A stretch of 32,000 bases of DNA from Aliivibrio fischeri ES114 (GTDB lineage: Bacteria > Pseudomonadota > Gammaproteobacteria > Enterobacterales > Vibrionaceae), in the NCBI RefSeq assembly GCF_000011805.1, contig NC_006841.2. One strand, written 5' to 3'. Positions 8,997 to 28,164 of the stretch are shown here, piece by piece. The notes beneath the pieces were generated by a model. The model was not told the origin of the DNA and made no database searches. It worked only from the letters and a program-made list of their open reading frames with translations. Position 1 is the stretch's first letter. Each line of letters begins with the position of its first letter. A program made the position numbers and the translations under genes.

Positions 8997-10691
8997 TTAT
9001 TTGTTAGGTATGGATAACATAGGTAAATCTAGGTTTTGTTCTTTTGCACAATTGATCGCTATATCATAACCCGCATCAGCATGTCGCATTACGCCCGTTG
9101 CTGGGTCATTATGTAATACTCGACTGACACGTTCAGTTGCCTCATCAGTTCCATCACATACGATGACCATACCTGAATGTTGTGAGAAACCCATGCCGAC
9201 GCCTCCACCATGGTGTAAGGATACCCACGTTGCTCCTGAGGCGGTATTGAGTAGGGCGTTTAATAGCGGCCAGTCAGACACGGCATCTGAACCATCCATC
9301 ATGTCTTCGGTCTCACGGTTTGGGCTGGCGACAGAGCCGGAGTCAAGATGATCACGACCAATGACGATAGGAGCTTTTAACTCTCCATTTTTTACCATCT
9401 CATTGAATGCTTTACCGAGACGAGCACGATCTTTTAGTCCAACCCAGCAGATACGTGCAGGTAACCCTTGAAATTGAATGCGTTCACGTGCCATGTCTAA
9501 CCAATTGTGAAGGTGTGGATTATCAGGGATCAGTTCTTTTACTTTTTGGTCGGTTTTGTAAATATCTTCAGGATCACCAGATAGAGCTGCCCAGCGAAAT
9601 GGTCCTATACCTTCACAAAATAGAGGACGAATATAAGCTGGAACGAATCCAGGGAAATCAAAGGCATTAGTGATGCCTTCTTCAAAAGCCATTTGTCGAA
9701 TATTGTTGCCATAATCTACCGTTGCTGAGCCTGATTTTTGAAGAGATAGCATTGCCTCTACTTGAACAGCCATTGATTGTTTTGCTGCATTCACTACATT
9801 GATTTCATCTTTTAAGCGCATTTTTGCTGCGCCATCCATTGACCATCCTTGAGGTAAATAACCATTAAGAGGGTCGTGAGCAGATGTTTGGTCAGTAGTA
9901 ATGTCAGGAACAATTCCACGTTTTACAATTTCAGCATAGACATCAGCAGCATTACCTAATAAACCAACAGAAATAGGAGAGCTAGAACGTTTTGCTTCTT
10001 CAATGATAGAGAGGGCTTCACTGAGTGTTGTCGCTTTACGGTCTACATAGCCTGTACGGAGACGGTAATCGATACGAGATTCATCACACTCAACCGCTAG
10101 CATTGAGAAGCCAGCCATGGTTGCAGCAAGAGGTTGAGCACCTCCCATACCGCCAAGCCCACCAGTTAGGATCCAGCGACCTTGTGTATCACCATTAAAA
10201 TGCTGCTTTGCCATTGCAATAAAAGTTTCGTAAGTTCCTTGAACAATACCTTGTGACCCAATGTAGATCCAACTGCCAGCCGTCATTTGACCGTACATCA
10301 TCAAACCTTGCTTATCGAGTTCATTAAAATGTGCCCAATTAGCCCAATGAGGGACTAAATTGGAATTAGCGATTAATACTCGTGGTGCGTTAGTGTGAGT
10401 TTTAAATACTCCAACGGGTTTACCTGATTGCACCATTAAGGTTTCATCATCTTCTAGACGAGTTAACACTTCGATGATTTTATCGTAGCATTGCCAGTTT
10501 CGTGCAGCACGACCAATACCGCCATAAACGACCAAAGCGTGGGGATGTTCTGCGACGTCAGGATGTAAATTATTCATGAGCATTCGAAGTGGGGCTTCTG
10601 TTAACCATGATTTAGCCGTTAACTCGATTCCTGTCGGTGCAATGATAGTACGAGACTCATCCAGTCTAGGGTTAGATGATGTTTGTGTCAT
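8997..10691 (-). CDS. hutU: Urocanate hydratase
   Basis: 564 aa with the NAD-binding segment [29 protein letters not shown] upstream. Flanked by hutH and hutG. Confidence 0.95.
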
Positions 10692-10709
10692 TATTGCTTC
10701 TCCTTGCTA

Positions 10710-11747
10710 TTACATATTTGATTTCATACCGTGAGCGATGGTCCAAACGAGCCGAGCAACTAAACGTGCCGTTTGATTATCAATATCAAAGGTAGGATTA
10801 AACTCAGCGAGATCCGCCAGTAGTAATTTGGATTCACCGTGTTGGTTTTTAGCTTTTAAAATATCGGGTAACAGTGATTCTATAATGTCTAATGAAACAC
10901 CACGCACTGCAGGAGCGCTTACCCCTGGTGCGCATGACGCTGGAAATACGTCGATATCGATAGTGAGATAAAGAAAGTCGTTTTGTTCAATGAATTCGGA
11001 AAGAGCCTGTTTAATTTGAGGTAAATTTAATAGGTTCATTTCAATATCATCAAAATGAAGCACACCTAACTGTTTTGCTTTGTGATAAAGAGCTTGAGTA
11101 TTACTGCCTTTATTTAGACCTAAACAGGCATAGTGGAAAGGCCAATGTTGAACATGACAAAATTCTGATATTTGGTGGAATGGGGTTCCAGAGTTACCGT
11201 ATTGTTTACTTGATTGAGACGCTGAACTTGATGGTGATTGAGATAAGTTCCTCAAATCAAAATGTGCATCGAAATTAATGATACCAATACGTGGTGGAGG
11301 TGTAGGTGATGTTAAAACAGCTCTGCTTTGTAAATAACGAGCAATGCCTTGAAATGATCCCCATGCTACTTCATGACCACCTCCGAGAACAATAACTTGA
11401 TGCCTATTGGCTAAGGCTGATTTTATTTTGATCCCGAGTTGCTTTTGAGCTAATTCAAGGTCGCCATCATTACACTGGATATCTCCTCCATCATAAACAT
11501 CGCTTTGATGGTGCCAAGCTAAATTAGCTAATGCACGGCGAATGACCTGAGGAGCGGCATAAGCTCCCTTACGTCCTTTATTACGAATAACGCCTTCATC
11601 ACAAGCAAAGCCTAATAGCATTATGCCATCTTGGTTTGTACTATTTGTCACTTTTACTTTTTGATGCCATCGCAAACCAAGTTCACCATCTTCATGATCC
11701 ACTCTTCCCATCCAGCTTGTCATATTGACCGATGAATTATTTTTCAT
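10710..11747 (-). CDS. hutG: Formimidoylglutamase (arginase/ureohydrolase fold)
   Basis: Ureohydrolase metal motifs are present: [18 protein letters not shown] and TIDIDVF. The track ORF starts at TTG 11768. ATG 11747 has GGAGAG 7 nt upstream and overlaps the hutI stop (ATGAAAAATAA), so the start is uncertain among 11768, 11762, 11747 and 11723. Confidence 0.85.
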
Positions 11748-23042: not shown

Positions 23043-24286
23043 TGTTTTCACCGCTTTCTCTTTTTATCGGTAGCCGTTTTGCACGGGCGAAGCAACGAAA
23101 CAAAATGGTGTCGTTCATTTCTATCTCGTCTACTTTAGGTATTGCGATTGGCGTAGCCGTAATTATCATTGGTTTATCTGCCATGAATGGCTTTGAGCGT
23201 GAATTGCAAAATCGTGTTTTGTCCGTTATTCCGCATGCAGAGCTTGAGGGCGTAAAAAAACCAGTGACTGATTGGCAATCTATGATGATCCAAGCTAAAA
23301 AACACCCAAAAGTCACAGGGGCGGCACCTTATGTGCGTTTTACCGCTTTATTAGAAAGAGGCAGTAAATTAAAAGCAGTAGAAGTAAGAGGTGTTGAACC
23401 TTTACTTGAAAATTCTGTATCTAAATTACCTGAGTATATTGATAAAGCCGCTTGGAATGCGTTTGAGGCCAATAAACAAAGTGTGATTTTAGGTAAAGGC
23501 GTAGCGGATACACTTAATGTGAAAGTTGGGGATTGGATAACAGCGATGATCCCTGATGAGAATGCAGATAGGCAATTGCGTTCTCCAAAACGCCAGCGTT
23601 TACAAGTGGTGGGTTTACTTTCTCTTGGTGGACAAGTTGATCATGGCTTAGCTATTGTTCCTCTTAAGGATGCACAGCAATACATTAATTTAGGTGACAG
23701 TGTCACTGGTGTATCATTACAAGTAAGCAGTGTACTTAATGCTCAAGATATTGTACGTGAAGTGGGTGGTACATTAAGTGAATACGTGTATTTACGCAGT
23801 TGGATTCAAAAATACGGTTATTTGTATCGTGATATTCAATTAGTACGCTCCATTATGTATTTAGTCATGGTGCTCGTTATTGGGGTGGCGTGTTTTAATA
23901 TTGTATCCACTCTTATGATGGCGGTAAAAGATCGCGCTGGAGATATCGCGATTCTTCGTACCATGGGGGCTAACGATGGCCTGATTAAACGGATATTTGT
24001 TTGCCAAGGGATTTTCTCTGGCGTAACAGGGAGTATCGCAGGTTCTGTTTTAGGATCGGTAGTGGCATTGAATTTGACTCCAATGATTAAAGCGCTTGAA
24101 TCTCTTATTGGTCATCAGTTTTTATCTGGGGATATTTATTTTGTTGATTTTCTGCCGTCGCAATTGGTGTGGAGTGACGTGGCGATTGTCACATGTACTG
24201 CGATTTTATTAAGCAGTATTGCCACTTGGTATCCAGCTCGTAGAGCGAGTCGATTGCAACCAGCTGCAGTATTAAGCTCAAAATAA
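23042..24286 (+). CDS. lolE: Lipoprotein-releasing ABC transporter permease
   Basis: [27 protein letters not shown] parallels the E. coli LolE N-terminus. The ATG overlaps the lolD stop. It is a paralogue of lolC. Confidence 0.92.
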   Translation: MFSPLSLFIGSRFARAKQRNKMVSFISISSTLGIAIGVAVIIIGLSAMNGFERELQNRVLSVIPHAELEGVKKPVTDWQSMMIQAKKHPKVTGAAPYVRFTALLERGSKLKAVEVRGVEPLLENSVSKLPEYIDKAAWNAFEANKQSVILGKGVADTLNVKVGDWITAMIPDENADRQLRSPKRQRLQVVGLLSLGGQVDHGLAIVPLKDAQQYINLGDSVTGVSLQVSSVLNAQDIVREVGGTLSEYVYLRSWIQKYGYLYRDIQLVRSIMYLVMVLVIGVACFNIVSTLMMAVKDRAGDIAILRTMGANDGLIKRIFVCQGIFSGVTGSIAGSVLGSVVALNLTPMIKALESLIGHQFLSGDIYFVDFLPSQLVWSDVAIVTCTAILLSSIATWYPARRASRLQPAAVLSSK

Positions 24287-24308
24287 AATATAAGTTTTTA
24301 GTAAGATA

Positions 24309-24340
24309 AAGCCCTTAGATATATTCTGAGGGCTTTTTTT
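24309..24340 (+). terminator. Rho-independent terminator of lolCDE
   Basis: aagcccttag pairs with ctgagggctt (8 to 10 bp including one G-U pair) around a 7-nt loop, followed by a T7 run (24334-24340). Confidence 0.85.
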
Positions 24341-24450
24341 ATGTGATTTAAAAATTCCTAACTATACTTATAGGATATTAAAACTAGGTATATAAGCAAT
24401 AAGGAAAGGCATTATAGAATTTAGTTAATTCATATTGATAGAGGTTAGAT

Positions 24451-25800
24451 ATGGATATACATGATAATAATCGTATTTCAATGTATGTTATTGGAAATGA
24501 TATTCCAATTAATTGTCAGGACCTTGATTTTATATATGTTAATAATTTAGATGAATTAACATTAGATTCTCCTTCAGTAATAATTTTAGCTTTAGAGCCT
24601 AAAAAACAGAATCAAGCATTACTATCCTTACATCAAGATTTTCCACTTTGGGATAGCCAAGTCTATGTTTTACAAGAGAGTACATTGACTGAATACCTAT
24701 CTGATGGCATTTTTGATCCCTTCAAAATTACAGCGCAATGGAAACAGCATCAAAGTAAATTATCTTTAATTGAAGAAGAACCAACAGACAAACTACTGGC
24801 GTGGTTATGGCTTGGGTTGGATCGACGTTTATTGCCTTTATGCCAAAGTGAGAAAAGAGAACTATATTATTATCCATTATTACATTGTTATTTTGGTGAG
24901 GATTATGAGCCTTATCATTATTTTCAATTAGAGGAAAAAAGAGGGTATTTAGAAAAGCTTAATACCGTAGATAAAATAAGATTATGCTCATCTTGTCATA
25001 GCGGACATTTAAATTACATCGAGACTTGCCCCGACTGTAAGAGTACAAACATCGAAGAGATATTATCTCTGCATTGTTTCACTTGTGGTCATGTGGGTAA
25101 AGAGCAACGTTTTGTTAAACAAGATAAACTGCAGTGCCCAAATTGTTTTACTAAGTTACGTCATATTGGTGTTGATTATGATAGACCGTTGGAGCGCTAT
25201 CAATGTCGAGATTGTCAGTTATCATTTTCAGAATCGGTAGTGAGAGTTCGATGTCTTTCTTGTTTCCATATGAATGAGACCAGTGAGTTAATAGCAAGGC
25301 CAATTAATCAATTTAAAGTGGGTGAGCAGGTTAAAGGTCTTATGATGTATGGTCGTCGACCGATAGAGCAAGAGCTCTCACTTAACGGTTTAATTGACCA
25401 AAATTCATTTCATAATTTGTTGGTATGGATAAATAAGCTAGCAATAAGACATGAACAGCACCATTTATTATTAGGGGTTCAATTATCTGGTATTGATAGC
25501 TACTCAAAAGAGTTTGGTGAGATAAAGCGGATACAGTTAATCGATGAAATATCATCTCATTTTAATGGGTTGCTGAGAGACACAGACATTTGCTGTCAAT
25601 ACAATTCAGAACTGATGTTACTTCTTATGCCAATGACACCAAGAAGTTCGCATAAAATTATGGAAGATAAAATCGCCAATATTGCCAGTGATATTGAGTC
25701 TGAACTGGTGACTCTTCATTTGTACATCTGGGAATTGCCTGACCCTTCATTGAGTAATAGTGCTTCAGTATGGTTAGCTGATTTGCTTAAGGATATATGA
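24451..25800 (+). CDS. Soluble regulator-like protein: N-terminal alpha/beta region, three tandem CxxC..CxxC zinc ribbons, C-terminal degenerate GGDEF domain with intact RxxD I-site
   Basis: AGAGG RBS upstream. There are 12 Cys in three CxxC-N10-16-CxxC units (aa 179-271, nt 24985..25263). The C-terminal RDTDICCQYNSELMLLLMPMT aligns residue-for-residue with PleD RAIDLPCRYGGEEFVVIMPDT. That gives an RxxD at 25576..25587 and NSELM in place of GGEEF at 25603..25617. No TM segment. The stop overlaps the next ATG (ATGA). Confidence 0.7.
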   Translation: MDIHDNNRISMYVIGNDIPINCQDLDFIYVNNLDELTLDSPSVIILALEPKKQNQALLSLHQDFPLWDSQVYVLQESTLTEYLSDGIFDPFKITAQWKQHQSKLSLIEEEPTDKLLAWLWLGLDRRLLPLCQSEKRELYYYPLLHCYFGEDYEPYHYFQLEEKRGYLEKLNTVDKIRLCSSCHSGHLNYIETCPDCKSTNIEEILSLHCFTCGHVGKEQRFVKQDKLQCPNCFTKLRHIGVDYDRPLERYQCRDCQLSFSESVVRVRCLSCFHMNETSELIARPINQFKVGEQVKGLMMYGRRPIEQELSLNGLIDQNSFHNLLVWINKLAIRHEQHHLLLGVQLSGIDSYSKEFGEIKRIQLIDEISSHFNGLLRDTDICCQYNSELMLLLMPMTPRSSHKIMEDKIANIASDIESELVTLHLYIWELPDPSLSNSASVWLADLLKDI

Positions 25801-27112
25801 TGGCTGAATTTCAATATATTCTTTATTTAATAACCGGTACGTTGACGACATATTGGGAGTTAATGCTAACTTTTTTGCCTATATTATTGCTTGTTGAAGT
25901 CCCGCTTTTATTGCTCATTTTTATTGGTATTTTGCATTGGTCATGGGGAGCGAATGAAGTCAGGAAACATGAACATCCATCAATCAGTTTTATTGTTACC
26001 TGTTATGCAGAAGGTAAAGAGATAGAAAAAACCATTGCTACTTTGGTTGAGCAAATCTATCCAAACCACATTGAAATCTTAGTTGTGATTGATGGTGCTA
26101 AAGAGAATAAAGAGACGTATAGAACAGCTATATCTTTGATTAAAAATACAAAAATATACCGAATAAGACCATTAAAATTCTTCCTAAATGGCAACGTGGT
26201 GGACGTGTATCGACTCTTAATGCCGGGCTATCAGAAGCAAAATATGAATTGGTTATCAATGTGGATGGAGACACCTCTTTTGATAACAATATGGCGCTTA
26301 AAATGGCGCGAACATTTGCAAATCCTAATGTTATTGCTTGTGGAGGTGCGTTAAGGGTAAGAAATCGAGAGAGCAGTTTCTGGACAAAAATGCAGTCACT
26401 CGAATATATGATGTCGATGCAGAGCAGTAAAACAGGAATGGCAACATGGGGCTTATTGAATAATATTTCTGGTGCATTTGGTGGTTTTAGACGTTCGGTA
26501 TTGAAACAGGTCGGTGGCTGGAATACACATACAGCAGAAGACCTCGATTTAACGATTCGTTTAAAACAATACAAAAAACGATACCCAGGAACTCGGCTTA
26601 ACTTTTCCCCTAGAGCGATTGGACATACTGATGTACCAGATACATTTAAAGGTTTAATGAGCCAAAGATTACGTTGGGATGGCGATCTTCTGTTTGTGTA
26701 TTTACGAAAACATAAACATGGGTTACGCCCAAAATTGTATGGATGGGGAAGTTTTGGTTACACCTTAGTTTATGGTGTTTTACAAGCTGTATTATTACCG
26801 GTATTAATGACACTGTTTAATTTTTATATATTTATATTTTATCCAACAACAGTGGTTCTCGCAGTCCTAAGCTGTTTATACGTCATTTATTTGGTATTCA
26901 TTGCCATGACCTTTCTTATCTATCTCAGCTTGATTTCCGAACGGATCCAAGAAGACCGTGAAATGCTTTTATGGTTATTGATATATCCATTCTATGCATT
27001 GTTTATGCGGTTTGTTACTGCATTTGCCATGATAAATGAAATTGTTAGACGAAGTCATGAGGAGTCAAGCATGGCTCCATGGTGGGTACTCAAACGTGGT
27101 AAGAGGTTTTAA
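25797..27112 (+). pseudogene. Processive family-2 glycosyltransferase (membrane polysaccharide synthase, PgaC/BcsA/Alg8-like), split by a 1-nt frameshift
   Basis: The GT-A fold is divided between ORFs 25797..26354 and 26249..27112. Frame 0 reads ..VVIDGAKENKETYRTAISLIKNTK and then nonsense. The -1 frame is open from 26144 and reads (K)NIPNKTIKILPKWQRGGRVSTLNAGLSEAKYELVINVDGDT. DGD lies at 26264..26272, TAED follows, and QRLRW lies at 26663..26677. TM helices sit at both ends. The span is 1316 nt, which is 1 nt short of 439 codons. Confidence 0.8.
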
Positions 27113-27117
27113 CGATT

Positions 27118-28164
27118 ATGGATGTTAAATTTCATTTAGAAAAAAAGAATAAACCGACCTCAGACAACGGTATGAAAGTGTTGTATGGAATGGAAAAACG
27201 TGGAGCGTATCGTTTTCGATGGTATCTGATACTGGCTATTATTCTTAGTCCTATATTTTTTATGATTTACACCTTTGCAAAACAACATTTATTTACTGTA
27301 GCTCCTGGAATAATCACCACAGGGCCTGTGATCATCACAGCATCTCAAAATGGAACAGTAAAGTTAATTGATGTGAAAGACAGTGAATTTGTTTTGGAAG
27401 ATCAATTGCTAATGGAATTAGATGCGCCCATTTTAGAGCAAGAAATTGAATTTATAGAAAATGAATTAGAGCAATTATACCAAGAGCAAACGCAAAAAAT
27501 TACAGAAGATTTTGGTCCGTATATTAGTGCGATTGGAGCTGCAAAGCTTAATTTAAAAAAGATAACGAAAATCAAAGTCAATTATGATCAATACGCAAAA
27601 GAGGGGAAAGTATCCCAAGTGGATTATGCCGCAATTGTTGGTATTTATAACACCGCACAAAATAATCTTACTAATGCTTATATCGCATTGAATCAAGCTG
27701 AAATCGCACAAAAGCAACGCCTATTGGCTGGCGGTGTTGCTCAAGTTACTCGTGAATTAAACCAAGCATTAACAACGAAAAAAAATCAACTTGATGCATT
27801 GTCAATTAGAGCTCCGTATATGGGATTGGTGATTGATATTAATGCCTTGAAAGGACAACAAATTAGCATTGGGGATCCACTGGTCACTGTATCACCAGAT
27901 GTTGCTCCTTATGTCATTAGTTATTTAGACCCTAAGCACATTGAAAAAGCAAAACTAGGAGCATTAGTAACGGTTAAACTTCCTAATGGTAAAAAAGTAG
28001 AGGCGAGAGTGTCATCTGCCATAGGTTTAACCTCAAAACTTCCTATTCAGTTAGCAAAACCTTTTGAAGGTGCTAAAGCTTTACTCAAGGTTAAAATTAC
28101 ATTTTTAGGGGGGGTATTAGAAAAAGAGTGGGTAGAAGGCATGCCGGTAGAGGTGTATTTTTAG
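27118..28164 (+). CDS. HlyD-type membrane-fusion (periplasmic adaptor) protein, single N-terminal TM
   Basis: TM helix WYLILAIILSPIFFMIYTF. Lipoyl-like half-motifs are present (GIITTGPVIITASQNGTVKLIDVKDSEFVLEDQLLMELD and IRAPYMGLVIDINALKGQQISIGDPLVTV), separated by a coiled coil. It starts 5 nt after the synthase stop. Confidence 0.8.
   Translation: MDVKFHLEKKNKPTSDNGMKVLYGMEKRGAYRFRWYLILAIILSPIFFMIYTFAKQHLFTVAPGIITTGPVIITASQNGTVKLIDVKDSEFVLEDQLLMELDAPILEQEIEFIENELEQLYQEQTQKITEDFGPYISAIGAAKLNLKKITKIKVNYDQYAKEGKVSQVDYAAIVGIYNTAQNNLTNAYIALNQAEIAQKQRLLAGGVAQVTRELNQALTTKKNQLDALSIRAPYMGLVIDINALKGQQISIGDPLVTVSPDVAPYVISYLDPKHIEKAKLGALVTVKLPNGKKVEARVSSAIGLTSKLPIQLAKPFEGAKALLKVKITFLGGVLEKEWVEGMPVEVYF

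Follow-up and report, generated by a model that had tools for sequence, protein, structure and literature searches.

A probable mxdABC copy with a frameshifted synthase gene in Aliivibrio fischeri ES114

We analysed a stretch of 32,000 nucleotides (the window) from chromosome II of Aliivibrio fischeri ES114, following up a prediction that had been made from the letters alone (the original prediction). The subject of this analysis is an operon of three genes on the plus strand at positions 24451-28164 of the window, namely VF_A0465, VF_A0466 and VF_A0467, which we call genes 1, 2 and 3. Their coordinates, taken from the listing of open reading frames and the raw sequence, are collected in Table 1. 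The genes are tightly coupled, as had been predicted: genes 1 and 2 overlap by the sequence ATGA at 25797-25800, and genes 2 and 3 are separated by 5 nucleotides (27113-27117). We consider it probable that this locus is the A. fischeri copy of the mxdABC operon known from Shewanella, in which an MxdA-like effector bound to cyclic di-GMP (c-di-GMP) would gate a processive glycosyltransferase of family 2 (GT2), with export of the product via an adaptor protein.

Domains and motifs of the three proteins

Gene 1 encodes a protein of 449 amino acids (aa) with three domains in the order N-terminal alpha/beta domain, TackOD1 triple zinc ribbon and degenerate GGDEF domain. No transmembrane (hydrophobic) segment was found in it. 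An AlphaFold2 (AF2) model, based on an alignment with 81 homologues, has a mean predicted local distance difference test score (pLDDT) of 90. Six CxxC motifs, at residues 179, 193, 209, 229, 252 and 268, make up three zinc ribbons, and their cysteines are invariant in the 81 homologues. The original prediction had correctly described a protein with a triple zinc-ribbon array and no transmembrane segment, but it regarded the receptor as unrecognised. That description does not hold, as the zinc ribbons are the Pfam domain TackOD1 (PF18551) and the protein as a whole falls within the MxdA family. TackOD1 was described by Galperin and colleagues in 2018 as an output domain of archaeal response regulators that also occurs “in some bacteria”, with a function called “obscure” (PMC5847659).

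The best Foldseek match of the flavodoxin-like N-terminal domain is the pseudo-receiver of CikA, but this match is not significant (E 0.18, template modelling score 0.59). The domain is possibly a pseudo-receiver, an assignment that comes from a predicted structure and is unproven. It is suggestive because archaeal proteins are known in which TackOD1 is fused to a REC domain. As a separate observation, Shewanella MxdA binds CheY3.

The C-terminal domain of gene 1 has the GGDEF fold, and its Foldseek matches are the solved GGDEF domains of DgcB, TM1788, WspR and PleD. The original prediction had described this domain as a GGDEF domain with a dead active site (NSELM) and an RxxD motif positioned 5 residues upstream. 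Alignment with solved cyclases bears this out. The family profile of the C-terminal domain, “lrdtDiccqyrsdll”, aligns with “LREYDLCGRWGGEEF” in SiaD and “FRKSDIISRFGGEEF” in DgcR. Therefore, RDTD corresponds to the RxxD of the I-site, and NSELM, which begins after a spacing of 5 residues, stands in place of GG[DE]EF. Profile positions 53-114 fall on residues 331-392 of PleD, which places R376, D379 and K407 on PleD residues 359, 362 and 390. We take these to be the three I-site residues of PleD. Among the 81 homologues, R376 is conserved in 78, D379 in 80 and K407 in at least 90%. Judged from these alignments, the I-site geometry is correct and family-wide, and gene 1 is a probable c-di-GMP gate.

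Database records give many homologues of gene 1 the name “diguanylate cyclase”. These source annotations, together with the GGDEF fold, would fit a protein that is itself an active diguanylate cyclase. However, the motif position is degenerate in all 81 homologues, none of which has GG[DE]EF there. Moreover, the first metal-binding region of GGDEF domains, DxxFK, is not conserved in the family alignment, and gene 1 scores 16.0 bits with the Pfam GGDEF model (PF00990), below the threshold of 23.8 bits. We therefore regard an active cyclase as highly improbable. We also considered whether gene 1 is CdgG of Vibrio cholerae, and rejected this identity, since CdgG is a different protein, whose homologues have SGEEF.

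The MxdA protein of Shewanella oneidensis (P0192 among our matches) contains the string NVDEF at residues ~349-353, which aligns with the DxxFK region. The hairpin position of MxdA reads TRDGL. An early paper reportedly took NVDEF for the degenerate GGDEF motif. If that assignment was made, the alignment suggests that it was probably misplaced.

Gene 2 encodes a membrane GT2 protein. The original prediction had named the motifs DGD, ED and QRLRW, and in the repaired protein these occur at residues 157, 248 and 290. Its hydrophobicity profile has one strong N-terminal span and a C-terminal transmembrane bundle that follows QRLRW. The protein ends ~25 residues past its last transmembrane segment, a tail too short for a further domain. 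A PilZ domain was sought in genes 2 and 3, with no match at E<=0.1 in either.

The closest curated family of gene 2 is PgaC_IcaA (TIGR03937). An intact orthologue of gene 2 matches nearly the whole length of this model (profile positions 38-402 of 407) at 159.8 bits, where the cutoff is 422.3 bits. Given this difference, the GT2 protein is not an orthologue of PgaC. A match to NodC, at 83 bits, is likewise far below its family cutoff. The solved GT2 homologues, which include 6YV7 and hyaluronan synthase, are all distant (E about 1e-6 to 1e-5), and the polymer is therefore not predictable.

We observed that the cytoplasmic C-terminal tail of the GT2 protein, E-E/T-S-S-M-A-P-W-W-V-L-K/R-R/K-G/A-K-R-F, is near-identical in Aliivibrio (window positions 27040-27109) and Stutzerimonas (L048:9560-9626). 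Over the whole protein, the identity between the two is ~45%. The tail is a candidate docking site, judged from this conservation.

In ES114, a frameshift splits gene 2 into two reading frames, 25797-26354 and 26249-27112. A run of five A residues in ES114 corresponds to six in the intact allele of strain emors.2.1 (L001). Mandel et al. (2008, PMC2330054) resequenced VF_A0466, under the name “N-acetylglucosaminyltransferase”, and listed it as a true pseudogene, which has a -1 frameshift when compared with strain MJ11. The same study credits it with two apparently functional paralogues. Since the mxdB-like gene is frameshifted, the ES114 copy cannot make polymer and is dead at the synthase step. 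The original prediction was thus right that there is a frameshift, but it underplayed the consequence, which is that this copy is non-functional in ES114.

Gene 3 encodes a periplasmic adaptor of 348 aa that is closest to the EmrA type and has a single N-terminal transmembrane segment (residues 36-54). Neither the Vibrio nor the Shewanella operons encode a porin, hydrolase or modifying enzyme. However, in 21 loci the GT2 and HlyD genes are separated by a gap of ~2 kb. These loci are from Pseudomonas, Stutzerimonas, Vreelandella, Paucimonas and related metagenome-assembled genomes. We inspected the content of the gap in one of them, L048. There, positions 9596-11710 encode a secreted protein of 704 aa whose N-terminal half contains an OEP domain (TolC-like, PF02321). 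Its C-terminal ~270 residues gave no Pfam or PDB match. This gene points to an envelope-spanning arrangement of GT2 protein, membrane fusion protein (MFP) and outer-membrane factor (OMF). Based on their size, the other 20 gaps (L043-45, 47, 49, 50, 52-54, 56, 58-61, 65, 69, 70, 73, 79, 80) would hold the same OEP-type gene.

Mxd family membership and the proposed mechanism

All three proteins are homologous to proteins of the Shewanella mxd operon. Gene 1 is 34% identical to S. oneidensis MxdA over residues 26-446 (BLASTP, E 1e-80 to 2e-80), and MxdA of strain MR-1 (AAN57153) falls in the 90% cluster of our match P0112. The identities of genes 2 and 3 to MxdB and MxdC are 50% (E 3e-162) and 32% (E 1e-55), respectively, using a Shewanella locus that is >90% identical to that of MR-1. 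The MR-1 operon MxdABCD (SO_4180-4177) encodes these three proteins in an identical order: MxdA with TackOD1 and a degenerate GGDEF domain with RxxD, the GT2 protein MxdB and the HlyD-like MxdC. The A. fischeri locus differs in that it lacks MxdD, its GT2 gene is frameshifted in ES114 and the species has two paralogous trios. MxdD (L081:10951-11307) is a protein of 118 aa with a signal or anchor sequence and a low-complexity region rich in Ser, Glu and Pro. A tblastn search found it in Shewanella loci only (L029, L081, L082). Therefore, MxdD looks like a genus-specific accessory and is unlikely to be a core part. By sequence comparison, all core features tested place the A. fischeri locus in the Mxd family, and it lacks only the accessory MxdD.

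The family is large and uniform. A homology search with gene 1 yielded 605 proteins, from Vibrio, Photobacterium, Plesiomonas, Aeromonas, Psychromonas, Shewanella and others, and when one genome per species was scanned, at least 571 species had a relative of gene 1. A library clustered at 50% identity contains 216 related clusters (E<=1e-30), and almost without exception these are 440-480 aa long and match TackOD1 and the C-terminal domain. The original prediction had proposed to check whether the trio stays together in other genomes. It does: the three genes occur in the same order and on the same strand in 76 of 80 fetched loci, and the remaining 4 are cut by contig ends.

In S. oneidensis, the mxd operon is required for three-dimensional biofilm and aggregation, and mutants form flat biofilms (PMC3691769). 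Therefore, a possibility that the original prediction raised against its own novelty, that of a previously characterised exopolysaccharide (EPS) locus, largely applies: the locus is homologous to mxdABC, an operon that has been genetically characterised. Two further papers report MxdA of S. oneidensis, the only organism concerned, as a c-di-GMP-binding effector. According to them, the interaction partners of MxdA include CheY3 and the diguanylate cyclase PdgA, and it “probably activates the Mxd machinery” (PMC7666153, PMC11395469). This reported binding and the conserved trio agree with the predicted compact glycan system of a GT2 and a membrane-fusion protein with a probable c-di-GMP gate. 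Our literature search found no functional study of the homologues VPA0392-0394 in V. parahaemolyticus.

In the mechanism that we propose for the Mxd system, c-di-GMP would bind the I-site (R376, D379, K407) of the catalytically dead GGDEF domain in the soluble MxdA-like protein. The bound form would then switch on the MxdB-like synthase, an inner-membrane processive GT2 protein related to PgaC and NodC. This synthase is expected to polymerise a beta-linked sugar and to thread the chain through its own transmembrane bundle. The MxdC-like adaptor would guide the chain through the periplasm to an exit in the outer membrane, probably a TolC-like channel, which appears to be encoded within the operon in Pseudomonas-type versions only.

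The product could instead be a short oligosaccharide, or a glycan that stays in the periplasm or with the cell, resembling the chito-oligosaccharides of NodC or the osmoregulated glucans, with the adaptor leading to an efflux-type exit. The matches of the GT2 protein to NodC and PgaC, both far below their cutoffs, would be compatible with such a product, as would the lack of porin, hydrolase or modifying enzyme in the Vibrio and Shewanella operons. Also, the EmrA type, to which the adaptor is nearest, serves the efflux of small molecules. However, loss of mxd in Shewanella abolishes cell-cell aggregation and the three-dimensional structure of the biofilm, in keeping with a matrix polymer (PMC3691769, PMC7666153), and the transmembrane bundle after QRLRW resembles that of channel-forming processive synthases. 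We consider the oligosaccharide or periplasmic glycan improbable, and favour an exported polymer.

Several established systems resemble parts of the Mxd trio. PelD of the Pseudomonas Pel system and PssE of the Listeria Pss system are receptors with a degenerate GGDEF domain that bind c-di-GMP at the I-site and activate polysaccharide machines. Like gene 1, they are encoded within an EPS operon and have a dead GGDEF domain that keeps RxxD 5 residues upstream. Unlike them, gene 1 has no transmembrane segment and no GAF domain, and carries the alpha/beta domain and TackOD1 instead. In addition, its partner is a PgaC-like GT2 protein and not PelF, the GT4 protein of Pel. Gene 1 would thus act in the manner of PelD and PssE but, on account of these differences in domains and synthase partner, lies outside their families.

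The pairing of a membrane GT2 protein with a single-pass HlyD-type adaptor is shared with Alg8/Alg44 (alginate) and BgsA/BgsB (mixed-linkage beta-glucan). However, Alg44 senses c-di-GMP via the PilZ domain of the adaptor and BgsA via the C terminus of the synthase, whereas the Mxd trio has a separate, soluble sensor. PgaC/IcaA, the synthase of poly-beta-1,6-N-acetylglucosamine, has a similar topology to the GT2 protein, but its partners PgaD, PgaB and PgaA are not present here. Finally, a tripartite system of cyanobacteria makes cellulose with a GT2 synthase that has its own PilZ domain, an HlyD-like protein and a TolC-like protein. The Mxd system would cross the envelope in the same manner, by GT2 protein, MFP and a TolC-type channel, as suggested by the OEP gene in L048 and the gap size elsewhere. 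In the Mxd system, however, the sensor is separate from the synthase.

A number of points weigh against our interpretation. The reports on binding and biofilm come from S. oneidensis and not from Vibrionaceae, so their extension to A. fischeri goes by analogy. The Shewanella polymer was never chemically identified, and the term “exopolysaccharide” is an inference in the source literature too. The outer-membrane component is not encoded at the Vibrio or Shewanella loci, MxdD is absent from the A. fischeri locus, and the sequence identity between gene 1 and MxdA is only 34%. Lastly, an earlier Shewanella study, as cited in two papers (PMC3691769, PMC3672883), described MxdA as an indirect modulator of c-di-GMP levels. 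Therefore, MxdA may be a hub and not a direct allosteric activator.

As a signalling hub or sink, gene 1 would bind c-di-GMP, dock diguanylate cyclases and CheY, and tune local pools of the nucleotide, and its co-transcription with the other genes would only co-localise the products. Apart from the indirect control just mentioned, the interactions of MxdA with PdgA and CheY3 (PMC7666153) are in keeping with such a role, and both the N-terminal alpha/beta domain and TackOD1 are conserved and could be modules for protein docking. However, the strict ATGA coupling to the GT2 gene and the gene order kept in 76 of 80 genomes are typical of the subunits of one machine. Moreover, Shewanella mutants with deletions of mxdA and mxdB have the same aggregation defect (PMC3691769). 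A hub that is separate from the synthase is thus unlikely, though somewhat less so than the oligosaccharide product. On balance, the reading as a c-di-GMP-gated synthase is supported, as part of the known but poorly characterised Mxd system.

Leader and flanking genes

As in the original prediction, the operon has its own AT-rich leader behind a terminator that follows lolE. This terminator marks the upstream boundary of the operon. The GC content is 24% in the leader (measured over 24287-24450) and 36% in the operon. A promoter scan found no sigma-70-like site in the leader, and promoter-like matches overall were at chance level (17 found, 18.5 expected). Scanning the leader against Rfam found neither a c-di-GMP riboswitch nor any other Rfam family. 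Sub-threshold Rfam matches to Thr_leader (23.5 bits) and sroD (22.9 bits) at 24254-24342 lie on the lolE terminator hairpin, and we regard them as stem-loop matches that arose by chance.

The genes lolCDE, which encode an ATP-binding cassette (ABC) transporter, lie immediately upstream of the operon, and zwf is the next gene after gene 3, with a spacing of 137 nucleotides. The original prediction had identified gene 3 as an HlyD-type adaptor, with which its family matches agree, but had stated that no ABC partner is nearby, which overlooks the adjoining lolCDE. We considered LolCDE as the ABC partner of the adaptor. However, the lolE and zwf flanks are confined to A. fischeri and are not conserved outside the species. 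We therefore rejected a partnership between LolCDE and the adaptor.

Table 1 Features of the mxdABC-like locus, with positions in the window
Feature	Position	Strand	Evidence or detail
Intrinsic terminator	24308..24336	+	12-bp stem, 5 GC pairs, then T-run; 3' of lolE
AT-rich leader	24337..24450	+	AGAGG Shine-Dalgarno-like motif ~8 nt before ATG
mxdA-like gene VF_A0465 (gene 1), 449 aa, soluble	24451..25800	+	100% identical to VF_A0465
N-terminal domain, residues 1-105, flavodoxin-like	24451..24765	+	AF2 pLDDT 86
TackOD1 domain, residues 106-290	24766..25320	+	PF18551, E 9.7e-70, profile positions 4-188 of 188
Degenerate GGDEF-fold domain, residues ~300-449	25348..25797	+	Foldseek E 2e-8, probability 1.00
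I-site RxxD motif RDTD, R376-D379	25576..25587	+	Aligns to RxxD of SiaD, DgcR, TM1788
NSELM, residues 385-389, at GG[DE]EF position (dead active site)	25603..25617	+	Profile alignment to GGEEF/GGDEF
mxdB-like membrane GT2 synthase gene VF_A0466 (gene 2), pseudogene in ES114	25797..27112	+	Pfam GT2 families
-1 frameshift site	26142..26146	+	A5 in ES114 vs A6 in intact allele (L001, strain emors.2.1)
mxdC-like HlyD/EmrA-type periplasmic adaptor gene VF_A0467 (gene 3)	27118..28164	+	HlyD_3, HlyD_D23, EmrA family matches

Two Mxd trios in A. fischeri

A second, intact trio lies ~14 kb downstream of the first, past the end of the window. We located it in A. fischeri emors.2.1 (L004:7001-10715, with the paralogue of gene 1 at L004:7001-8353), and by adjacency it corresponds to VF_A0477-0479 in ES114. 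Its three proteins are 56%, 63% and 54% identical to those of the first trio. It is directly 3' of VF_A0475 (EAL-GGDEF) and VF_A0476 (CHASE-GGDEF), which are on the same strand, and a gene for a methyl-accepting chemotaxis protein is next. That the second trio adjoins two c-di-GMP enzymes gives good contextual support for control by c-di-GMP. VF_A0477-0479 is likely the working system in ES114. We also considered VF_A0476 as the paralogue of gene 1, and rejected it, as the primer published for VF_A0476 lies in the CHASE-GGDEF gene that precedes the second trio.

Other A. fischeri strains have truncated alleles of gene 1 (P0124, P0129): one of 279 aa, which ends after TackOD1 and occurs in 10 contigs, and one of 322 aa, which has lost the N terminus. 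Together with the frameshift in the ES114 GT2 gene, these alleles suggest that the first copy of the trio may be decaying in A. fischeri.

Neither VF_A0465 nor VF_A0477 is in the available lists of a 50-protein census of c-di-GMP proteins in V. fischeri, whose VF_A04xx entries range from VF_A0476 to VF_A0506 (PMC11575326). This is likely because the GGDEF domain scores below the Pfam threshold. The Mxd system is also not mentioned in a 2021 review of the control of exopolysaccharides by c-di-GMP.

We regard four points as mildly new: MxdA and TackOD1 are connected with Vibrionaceae, the family is large and uniform, the operon in L048 contains a TolC-like gene, and VF_A0465 and VF_A0477 are both missing from the available lists of the census. 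The Shewanella Mxd system, the TackOD1 domain and a widespread operon of Vibrio, Aeromonas, Pseudomonas and other genera are now linked, a connection that we did not find in the literature examined. The finding in A. fischeri does not overturn current understanding.

A broader view, which we put forward tentatively and with considerable doubt, is that Mxd-type trios form an under-recognised class of synthase-dependent glycan secretion systems in >500, mostly gammaproteobacterial, species. In such a class, the three-domain effector (pseudo-receiver-like, TackOD1 and I-site GGDEF) would integrate c-di-GMP with a second input, for example phosphorylated CheY or a redox or metal signal sensed via the cysteine array. 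It would drive an envelope-spanning machine of GT2 protein, MFP and TolC, whose polymer would be unlike cellulose, poly-N-acetylglucosamine, alginate and Pel. If this view is true, A. fischeri carries two such systems that are left off its c-di-GMP census, as far as the available lists extend.

For A. fischeri as a squid symbiont, the analysis adds VF_A0465 and VF_A0477 as two probable c-di-GMP effectors. In ES114, the second copy alone can work. Each effector is attached to a putative glycan-export machine, which could be an unexamined matrix component of the symbiosis.

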